From a virus (taxonomy: Duplodnaviria; Caudoviricetes), in the IMG/VR virus record IMGVR_UViG_3300009108_000480: DNA of 64,000 nt, one strand, 5' to 3'. Below the pieces are notes generated by a model. That model saw only the letters and a list, made by a program, of their open reading frames with translations. It did no database searches and was not told the DNA's origin. Below, piece after piece: positions 8,396 to 33,885 of the stretch (the stretch's first letter is position 1; every line of letters begins with the position of its first letter). A program made the translations under genes and the position numbers.

Positions 8396-8403
8396 TATTT
8401 ATA
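8396..8403 (-). promoter_or_regulatory. T4-type late promoter TATAAATA for the gp6-like gene
   Basis: Exact TATAAATA on the minus strand, 16 nt upstream of the ATG at 8379. Confidence 0.7.
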
Positions 8404-30762: not shown

Positions 30763-31344
30763 ATGAATATGCGATATTGTTTTCATCATATACCAAAAAC
30801 AGGTGGCAGTACATTAAAAGCAAGATTAAATCATCGAGCATCAATTGGACAAATAGATAAATTTTCATATGCAATAGGACATAATATAAGTGTATCCACA
30901 CCTGGTAAGCACTATACATTATTAAGAAATCCTTTACACAGAGATATATCACATTTCAATTATGATTTTAATAAAAAAGAAAGCATAGCAAACACATTTG
31001 AAGAAAGTTGTAATAAAATGCATGGCAATTTTATGGTACTTTGGTTATATTCAAACTATCTAAAACAGTCAACTAACATACCAATTGAAGAAAAATATAA
31101 ACAAGTACAAACAATACTAAAAAATAATTTTTTAAAAATTTTTAATGCTGATAAATTTGAAAACTCATGGAAAGAAATTACAAAAATATTAAACATCGAT
31201 GTTGAACCAAGACTAAATTCCAATATATCTAATATAGATTATAACAAAATTGCAAAATATGAAAATTTATCTAACAAATTTAAAAAATGGCACAAACAAT
31301 ATAACCAGTATGATTATCTTCTTCATGAAGAATTTTGTATGTAG
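30763..31344 (+). CDS. Sulfotransferase family protein (true start probably ATG 30769)
   Basis: 5'-PSB motif HIPKTGGSTL and 3'-PB-like TLLRNPLHRDISHFNY. Confidence 0.7.
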   Translation: MNMRYCFHHIPKTGGSTLKARLNHRASIGQIDKFSYAIGHNISVSTPGKHYTLLRNPLHRDISHFNYDFNKKESIANTFEESCNKMHGNFMVLWLYSNYLKQSTNIPIEEKYKQVQTILKNNFLKIFNADKFENSWKEITKILNIDVEPRLNSNISNIDYNKIAKYENLSNKFKKWHKQYNQYDYLLHEEFCM

Positions 31345-31463: not shown

Positions 31464-31697
31464 ATGGATATCATGGTAAAGGTAAAAGGATGGGCAAAAG
31501 GATTAGCTGATGTAGGCGTAAGTCTAATAGCATTAGGAATCGTTTTAGAAATTCTTTTTAATGGTCAAGGTGTTCCGTTCTGGCCACATATTTCTGTAAT
31601 AGGAAATGTTCAGGGCGTACTTGCTGGCTTTTCAGATCAAGGTTTGGTCGGATTAGTAGCAATTTGGATTTTATATCATATCTACAATCGAAAATAA
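31464..31697 (+). CDS. Small membrane protein (77 aa, two hydrophobic segments)
   Basis: SD GGGAGG; hydrophobic VGVSLIALGIVLEILF and GLVGLVAIWILYHIY; own TAAATA upstream and terminator downstream. Confidence 0.75.
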   Translation: MDIMVKVKGWAKGLADVGVSLIALGIVLEILFNGQGVPFWPHISVIGNVQGVLAGFSDQGLVGLVAIWILYHIYNRK

Positions 31698-31727
31698 TAT
31701 AATAATCTAGAAATACGTTAACCTCAG

Positions 31728-31769
31728 AGAGTGGTGTAACTACTTTTAATTTTACACCACTCTTTTTTT
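31728..31769 (+). terminator. Intrinsic terminator
   Basis: AGAGTGGTGTAA/TTACACCACTCT 12-bp stem followed by a T-run. Confidence 0.8.
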
Positions 31770-31791
31770 ATTTTTTTTCATAAATATATAC

Positions 31792-31872
31792 AGTTCAAAC
31801 AGAGCTCCACTCAAGTGGAGACTTATGCGGAATTAACCGCGTAGCGAGTAGAACTCGCATTAGGCTCTGAAC
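31792..31872 (+). ncRNA. Candidate cis-regulatory four-way-junction RNA leader
   Basis: Closing stem CAGAG/CTCTG encloses CTCCAC/GTGGAG, GCGG/CCGC and GCGAGT/ACTCGC; starts about 5 nt after TAAATA (31781-31786) and ends next to the SD AGGAG. Confidence 0.6.
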
Positions 31873-31884
31873 AGGAGAAAACAA

Positions 31885-32301
31885 ATGGGAAGACCAATCA
31901 AAAAAAGTAAATTTGTATCAAGTTTTGGTGGCACAACAGCGGCTAAAATTGCAGTAACTGGATATCGACCAAGTGGTGGATCTTTAGTTAGCTCATCTAT
32001 TGCATACATTGTATCTCAAAGAGGATCTAAATTATTCAAGATTCACTTAGAAGATTCAACTGAAGCAATTTATGAATTAAAAGCAGTAGCACCAGCATCG
32101 TTGGCAAATACATCCAACCAATTTTGTGTACAAATTACGCTAGATGACTCAACTGTGGCTTATGTAGAGAAATTCTACAATAACACAGTTCACTATGTTA
32201 CGGCGGCAGGCGCGGCTGGAACAGTTCCTTACACATTAGGAACTGATATCTCTGGCTCAATTGCGGCAGGTAAAGGTAATATAGACATAGTATCTGAGTA
32301 A
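31885..32301 (+). CDS. Probable virion structural protein (138 aa)
   Basis: Late promoter, SD AGGAG, Thr/Ser/Ala-rich, own terminator. Confidence 0.7.
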   Translation: MGRPIKKSKFVSSFGGTTAAKIAVTGYRPSGGSLVSSSIAYIVSQRGSKLFKIHLEDSTEAIYELKAVAPASLANTSNQFCVQITLDDSTVAYVEKFYNNTVHYVTAAGAAGTVPYTLGTDISGSIAAGKGNIDIVSE

Positions 32302-32332: not shown

Positions 32333-32358
32333 GGGGGAGTTTAGGCTCCCCCTTTCTT
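32333..32358 (+). terminator. Intrinsic terminator
   Basis: GGGGGAG...CTCCCCC stem followed by TTTCTTT. Confidence 0.75.
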
Positions 32359-33417: not shown

Positions 33418-33885
33418 ATGGGTAGGTTTGCTAAAAATCCAGTAATAGGCGACAATGCTGTTGGAGTTACTATTCCAAATGTAACAACTACACAAAGACC
33501 TGCAGGTGTTAATGGACAATTAGTTTACAACACAACAACATCAACATATCAATCTTATATTGGTTCAGCATGGTACAATATGTCAACTGCGGCTGGCGAA
33601 AAAACAATTACAATAGATAAATTTCAAGGTGACGGAACAACTGTAACTTTTGGTGCAGGAGCAGGTAATACATTAGACGGATCTACTGGAGCAAGTTTTA
33701 CTCAAACTGTAAATAATGCAACAGATATTGTGGTTTTTGTTGGAGGTGTTTATCAAGTACCGACAACAAACTATACAGTATCAGGACAACAAATAACTTT
33801 TGGTTCTGCTCCACCGGCAAACGATGGTGCAACAAATGGTCATATAATTTCTATTATCCACGGATTACACAAATTAGGCGAGTAA
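33418..33885 (+). CDS. Fibre-associated virion protein (155 aa)
   Basis: TTTQRPAG and FQGDGTTVTF/VFVGGVYQ.P..NYT modules shared with ORFs 38329 and 40334. Confidence 0.65.
   Translation: MGRFAKNPVIGDNAVGVTIPNVTTTQRPAGVNGQLVYNTTTSTYQSYIGSAWYNMSTAAGEKTITIDKFQGDGTTVTFGAGAGNTLDGSTGASFTQTVNNATDIVVFVGGVYQVPTTNYTVSGQQITFGSAPPANDGATNGHIISIIHGLHKLGE

Follow-up and report, generated by a model that had tools for sequence, protein, structure and literature searches.

In the translational operators of phage T4 (the gene 32 leader and the RegA and gp43 sites) and in ribosomal-protein leaders, protein occupancy near the SD sequence limits initiation. The ompA leader is a 5'-terminal stem-loop that stabilizes its mRNA, and stabilizers of this type need no conserved sequence. 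Freshwater-2 RNA (RF02980), whose Rfam type is Cis-reg, is to our knowledge one of many catalogued RNA motifs without a known function. It reportedly originated from the 2017 screen by Weinberg and colleagues, and we take it to have been found only in uncultured aquatic sequence. Its consensus consists of three hairpins followed by an unpaired tail ending in AAGGAGAAAAcAAAUG, and the model begins at hairpin 1 without a closing stem. The article on that screen (Weinberg et al. 2017, PMC5737381) does not mention the motif in its main text. A search of one literature collection returned no RNA paper on freshwater-2, and we found no description of a phage setting, a late-promoter box or an MGRP start for it.

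We analyzed a stretch of 64,000 nucleotides (the window; IMG/VR record IMGVR_UViG_3300009108_000480), in which a preliminary description had proposed a structured leader RNA abutting the ribosome binding site of a virion gene. An Rfam covariance-model scan, which that description had named as a check, matched RF02980 to positions 31805-31887 (+) with 74.0 bits, compared with a gathering score (cut-off) of 49.9, and an E value of 1e-11. The match spanned the full model, positions 1-84 of 84, and was the sole above-threshold Rfam match in the whole window; in the region 31600-32000, other Rfam families gave only sub-threshold chance matches. The alignment to the consensus contained no non-standard pair, and the hallmarks of the family were present, namely three consecutive hairpins, the conserved UUAUGC..GCGUAG and a 7-nt loop ending in UAGAAC. 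The model ends in a conserved SD and AUG, matched here by AGGAGAAAACAAAUG (31873-31887), which opens a 138-aa ORF. We consider the identity as a freshwater-2 leader, together with the anatomy of 31792-31887 given below, to be nearly certain. The folded stretch is a further copy of an already catalogued motif and not a new kind of element; its lineage-specific closing helix, late-promoter setting and MGRP gene family are useful context for that motif. It shares with freshwater-2 the same three hairpins, the CUUAUGC, GCGUAG and UAGAAC bases and the AAGGAGAAAACAAAUG tail. It differs from the Rfam model, which has no closing helix, in that the window and 21 other leaders of its lineage pair the 5' leader with the linker.

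All helices listed in the preliminary description were present in the sequence at 31781-31887, and its three hairpins were reproduced in the minimum-energy fold by RNAfold. The four-way junction was both the minimum-energy and the centroid structure. The leader folded at -31.9 kcal/mol, compared with -18.4 +/- 2.9 kcal/mol in 200 dinucleotide shuffles (z -4.6), none of which was as good (0/200). The GC-rich pairing in an AT-rich genome, which had also been pointed out, was borne out by a G+C content of 47% in the RF02980 match versus 33.6% in the window. According to the pair probabilities, the 5' leader (31793-31805, +) consists of GUU, an unpaired CAAA and CAGAGC at 31800-31805. The latter forms the closing stem with GCUCUG (31864-31869, +), and its six pairs had ensemble probabilities of 0.6-0.9. 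GUU at 31793-31795 optionally pairs with AAC at 31870-31872 (+) as an extension of this stem, with a probability of 0.45.

Hairpin 1 (31806-31819, +) is formed by UCCAC (31806-31810) and GUGGA (31815-31819) with the loop UCAA, and hairpin 2 (31824-31843, +) by UAUGCGG (31824-31830) and CCGCGUA (31837-31843) with the loop AAUUAA. Hairpin 3 (31844-31858, +) pairs GCGAGU (31844-31849) with ACUCGC (31853-31858); its core is GCGA/UCGC around the conserved loop GUAGAAC, to which two extra local pairs may be added. C31805 can pair with either G31820 or G31864, and the preliminary description had therefore counted this base twice. The linker and 3' arm (31859-31872, +) comprise AUUAG, GCUCUG and AAC. 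Directly after AAC comes the SD AGGAG (31873-31877), followed by an A-rich spacer and the AUG at 31885. The reading as a structured leader that abuts a ribosome binding site, where a late head-module transcript is predicted to begin, is supported. This segment from SD to start (31873-31887, +) lies within the Rfam consensus, and the SD bases were unpaired with a probability of 0.7-0.99 in the RNAfold ensemble.

A T4-type late-promoter-like box, CATAAATA, is located at 31779-31786 (+). By analogy with T4, we set the +1 position six bases after the box; thus, the late transcript is predicted to start at ~31792. The box matches the T4 late promoter TATAAATA at 7/8 positions and is spaced as expected relative to the conserved first bases of the leader; full TATAAATA boxes precede other genes of the window, and promoter activity at this box is predicted. 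Elsewhere in the window, boxes of the form (T/G/A)ATAAATA directly precede start codons. TATAAATA-type boxes were located directly upstream of start codons on both strands at 8403, 14997, 21712, 32361, 51410, 51425, 56941 and 57648. The boxes of the window fit T4-style late promoters throughout the structural region.

Upstream of the box, a terminator-like hairpin composed of AGAGUGGUGUAA and UUACACCACUCU and followed by a U-rich tract (31728-31778, +) was recognized in the sequence after the 77-aa ORF. This hairpin folds long in the read-through fold; with a loop larger than 8 nt, it escaped a simple terminator scan. The terminator scan yielded a terminator-like hairpin at 32333-32352 (+), 3' of the 138-aa gene, and the next late-promoter box, TATAAATA, follows at ~32361 (+). 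The 138-aa gene is surrounded by terminator-like hairpins and late boxes and therefore appears to be a self-contained late unit. Contigs from RNA libraries covered 31810-31903 and 31937-32124, which is a weak sign of transcription; such contigs cannot show transcript ends. One metatranscriptome contig (run X18) was identical to the window over 31810-31903, that is, over the leader and the first six codons, and then diverged, resembling the gene of a sister lineage. In this contig, the leader either is better conserved than the gene or was exchanged between lineages.

The gene behind the leader (31885-32301, +) encodes a 138-aa protein of the MGRP family that is predicted to be all-beta. Marine and freshwater samples contain more than 1000 unnamed members of the product family. 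Across lineages, the family members associated with the motif are 17-30% identical to the 138-aa protein; despite this, they share an N-terminal MGRPxxK..FG and an IVxQRGxxKF block. The M-G-R-P start was present behind more than 90% of 278 distinct leaders (loci L001-L383; 31885-31896 in the window). Arg was encoded by AGA, CGT, CGC or CGA and Pro by all four of its codons, and this synonymous variation indicates that MGRP is conserved at the protein level. MGRPxxK..FG could tag the protein for assembly, bind RNA as an arm or signal processing.

The AlphaFold model of the 138-aa protein was all-beta with a pLDDT of 87, and its only matches were unnamed proteins, from uncultured phages and from the jumbo phages Atu_ph07 and fHe-Yen9-03/04. 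Foldseek found no match to the model in the PDB at E <= 0.001. VIA-align against the PDB returned only generic small barrels (SH3/KOW/Tudor-like) with Z ~5, a weak indication from the model that the product may contain small SH3/KOW/Tudor-like barrels. Searches of Pfam and PHROGs with the 138-aa protein and ten family members, and an ESM Atlas feature search with the 138-aa protein, gave no usable match.

Portal, head maturation protease and Gp23-type major capsid genes are located just upstream of the leader gene. Cultured jumbo phages of the PA5oct, GAP32 and Phosso kind have major capsid proteins that share 68-74% identity with the one encoded here, and the source of the window is an uncultured marine T4-like jumbo phage. 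The position after the capsid gene, the late-promoter box and the flanking terminator-like hairpins suggest that the 138-aa product is an abundant virion protein. Two small ORFs lie between the capsid gene and the leader, one of 193 aa (30763-31344, +) and a hydrophobic one of 77 aa (31464-31697, +); neither had a Pfam or PHROG match. Further downstream, an ORF at 33418-33885 (+) starts with MGRF(AKNP..), 4 nt past the stop of the preceding ORF. It has no leader, its PHROG matches are weak and tail-fibre-like, and a relationship to the MGRP family is improbable. In one relative (L117:863-1579, -), a typical freshwater-2 leader precedes a 239-aa protein that starts with MATKK instead of MGRP. 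The L117 leader is close to that of L123, which has an MGRP gene; L117 looks like a gene replacement or deletion behind the leader.

Relatives of the leader were collected by pattern scans of IMG/VR and metagenome contigs and by a protein-guided scan. The survey yielded 358 copies with 278 distinct leaders, all of which were on uncultured viral (IMG/VR), metagenome or MAG contigs. Against GenBank phage records, blastn with the leader (50,697 records) gave only chance matches, and tblastn with the 138-aa protein and a 453-aa family member found none. A scan of 185,579 species genomes gave 69 pattern matches, 5 of which were true copies, all on MAG contigs; the other 64 had no promoter box, SD or AUGG and were rejected as chance matches. 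The true copies (L415, L417, L421, L436 and L444) were found under the MAG labels Rhizobium, Crocinitomicaceae, Vampirovibrionales, Candidatus Pelagibacter TMED203 and Rickettsiales MED657, and these five contigs are probably mis-binned phage DNA. L444 carries the closing stem of the window lineage.

The arrangement seen in the window recurs in nearly all relatives. A NNTAAATA box lies 5-6 nt before a conserved GU(U)C, followed by hairpin 1, (G)ACUUAUGC with hairpin 2, hairpin 3 with the loop (N)UAGAAC, the linker, GGAGAAAACAA and AUG; GGAGAAAACAA followed by ATG is the form most often seen in the family. Hairpin 1 varies in sequence while its pairing is kept: at least 4 bp were present in 260/278 leaders, with 113 different arm pairs. 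Hairpin 2 is conserved in sequence, as six of its seven pairs are invariant, and the seventh is always Watson-Crick (G-C in 131 leaders, U-A in 118 and A-U in 29). Hairpin 3 showed 40 arm combinations across the family with double-sided changes at 4/4 pairs, and its 7-nt loop is conserved in sequence. Comparison of these sequences indicates that the core of three hairpins (P1-P3) is well supported by covariation.

The closing stem behaved differently from this core. CAGAGC/GCUCUG was present in the window lineage only, which a targeted scan raised to 22 distinct leaders. Both arms were invariant in all of these; therefore, the stem shows conservation but no covariation. Among the same 22 leaders, hairpin 1, hairpin 3 and the linker tail varied. 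We aligned 79 leaders of the window lineage and its sister lineages. The closing-stem columns were paired in all rows of the window type, whereas the sister rows had no contiguous helix, and 57% of the cells were paired overall; we therefore rejected the closing stem as a feature of the family. In the nearest sub-lineage (L453, L456, L457 and L462), the linker is GGCUCCAU and the two outer closing pairs are lost without compensation. Covariation analysis thus gave strong support for hairpins 1-3 and none for the closing stem. The four-way junction claimed in the preliminary description holds for the window lineage alone; as a family feature it fails.

In the sister lineages, a 5'-terminal GUUCAA pairs with UUGGAC in the linker, and a CUCC:GGAG hairpin involving the SD follows directly. 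This short helix, GU(U)CAA/UUGG(A)C, was 96% paired, yet it is mostly conserved in sequence. U-A and U.G alternate in it, and in several lineages the fifth pair alternates between A-U and G-C or G.U. A U-A pair has become C-G once, and one deletion (GUCAA with UUGGC) is paired. The inner part of the helix was broken in ~56 leaders with AUAGGAC. An extended 7-nt helix, GUCAGAU/AUCGGAC, which occurs in some lineages, was rejected, as the ~56 leaders with AUAGGAC carry G.A or A.A mismatches in it. The leader-linker duplex energy was -4.43 kcal/mol for cognate pairs versus -4.14 kcal/mol for permuted ones, and 3/2000 permutations were as low; this cognate excess is small, and few independent lineages stand behind it. 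For the long-linker class, the comparison of sequences gives the short 5'-3' helix modest support.

In the window, two G.U pairs and a C.A weaken the place that corresponds to the short helix, which is replaced by the stem particular to this lineage. We estimated at a few percent the chance that, in a single sequence, a 13-nt leader and a 19-nt linker share a perfect 6-nt complement. In approximately half of the family, the linker measures just 5-12 nt and leaves no space for a closing helix. A 5'-3' closing helix is plausible as a lineage-variable feature of the long-linker forms; on this comparison, the closing stem of the window is a lineage add-on and the three-hairpin array the defining core.

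We propose that freshwater-2 is a protein-recognized leader at the 5' end of the mRNA that sets translation, mRNA stability or both, and we assign this reading a probability of roughly 35-40%. Protein- or ligand-sensing translational control, the role suggested in the preliminary description, is likewise hypothetical. Positions 31792-31887 form the 5' untranslated leader of a predicted one-gene late mRNA, and the three-hairpin core would be the recognition site for a protein. The binder may be the gene's own product, acting through small beta-barrels and its basic N-terminus, or a different factor from phage or host. Once bound, the protein would set the frequency at which ribosomes start, the core being 5-25 nt from the SD, and in some lineages a paired 5' end may also slow decay that starts at this end. 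In the window lineage, the first bases of the predicted transcript pair with the linker before the SD (CAGAGC/GCUCUG) and close the hairpins into the four-way junction. A recognized site is favored over mere structure because sequence conservation of six of the seven P2 pairs and of the P3 loop extends across proteins that are only 17-30% identical, because the SD is predicted to be free and because the element ends 5-25 nt from it. Against this reading, the fold match of the 138-aa protein is generic (Z ~5), and the 5' end is paired just in the long-linker half of the family. Alternatively, the conservation of sequence in the helices could reflect a compact tertiary fold or binding of a small ligand.

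The proposal resembles the T4 operators and ribosomal-protein leaders in that a structured, sequence-conserved site lies near the SD of a phage gene or a highly expressed gene. However, freshwater-2 matches these systems in neither sequence nor structure, and no protein is known to bind it. Moreover, the element in the window lies at the predicted 5' end, unlike those sites, and is common to a family of paralogous genes. A narrower form of the proposal, in which the freshwater-2 core is the operator of a feedback loop and the closing stem is its ON state in the window lineage, seems improbable to us. MGRP virion proteins would then bind their own leader through the conserved basic N-terminus and small beta-barrels. 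The closing stem would be the ON state because it consumes the CUCU that can pair with the SD in the sister lineages. The leader before the MATKK protein in L117 argues against strict self-regulation.

The proposed protein site was weighed against a passive role, in which a stable 5' fold shields the late mRNA from nucleases with 5'-end entry (RNase E/RNase J type) and keeps the SD exposed while sensing nothing. We regard this as somewhat less probable than the protein site. In its favor, the predicted transcript start coincides with the beginning of the element, the long-linker lineages have their first bases paired and the SD is predicted to be free. A highly made protein would also be expected to have such a self-contained head-module unit, with promoter and terminator of its own, and the L117 leader precedes a gene outside the MGRP family. 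Such a role would resemble the ompA-type stabilizers, in which pairing starts from or beside the first transcribed base (predicted here) of a highly expressed mRNA. However, any stable hairpin would protect, whereas freshwater-2 is strongly conserved in sequence, with six P2 pairs and the P3 loop retained over very divergent phages. In addition, ~8-10 bases are unpaired at the predicted 5' end of the short-linker members, that is, in half of the family. A riboswitch that senses a metabolite or an ion and gates translation of the late virion gene is less likely than a protein-recognized leader, and we hold it to be very unlikely. The multi-helix junction beside the SD and the conserved unpaired or junction bases (ACUUAUGC, GCGUAG and UAGAAC) would suit such a switch. 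In the window, the closing stem occupies the CUCU that could otherwise pair with GGAG of the SD; the two pairings are mutually exclusive in this lineage and could form an expression platform. Nevertheless, no alternative pairing that could serve as a platform was common to the family, and the short-linker members have none. The SD is also predicted to be open without a ligand, the controlled genes form a paralogous virion-module family with no metabolic link, and Rfam gives the family no type beyond Cis-reg.

A leader that inhibits itself by pairing CCC[A/G] in the loop of hairpin 2 with UGGG of AUGGG at the start codon has, in our view, slightly poorer prospects than the riboswitch. CCC[A/G] occurs in this loop in 135/278 leaders and in 73% of the short-linker class, and the complementarity between loop and start exceeds that of shuffled loops. 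Possible compensatory changes were found in L048 (loop GCCA with an AUGGCA start) and L015 (CCAU with AUGG). However, only 3-4 pairs would form, and 66 leaders contain neither CCC nor CCA. In the window, the loop AAUUAA matches the start region over 3 bases at best, so a start-codon pseudoknot is impossible there, and the pairing is absent from the window lineage. Finally, it is highly improbable that the conserved stretch acts other than as a folded leader RNA, either as a signal at the DNA level (a recombination cassette, or a part of the late promoter on its downstream side) or as a tRNA-like cloverleaf. Such roles would agree with the fixed distance to the promoter box and with the outline, in which three hairpins on a closing stem resemble a cloverleaf. 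Compensatory changes preserve the pairing of P1, P2 and P3, which points to RNA, and this covariation largely refutes both the DNA-level and the tRNA-like readings. Also against these readings, five large phage contigs yielded a single copy each. As for tRNA or tmRNA, ARAGORN found 0 genes in the window, and the 6-bp stem with a 4-nt loop, the 7-bp stem with a 6-nt loop and the 4-6-bp stem are unlike tRNA arms.

Hundreds of relatives place freshwater-2 where late mRNAs of uncultured T4-like phages, marine and freshwater, are predicted to start. Its setting is nearly constant, with a T4-type late-promoter box on one side and a strong ribosome binding site on the other, before one family of small proteins, and this narrows the candidate roles of the motif to protein binding, protection of the 5' end and translation. 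The closing helix is lineage-variable and does not define the motif, which is relevant to the design of constructs and to an extension of the Rfam model. If the feedback loop were true, it would constitute an autoregulation circuit for phage structural genes resembling that of ribosomal proteins.
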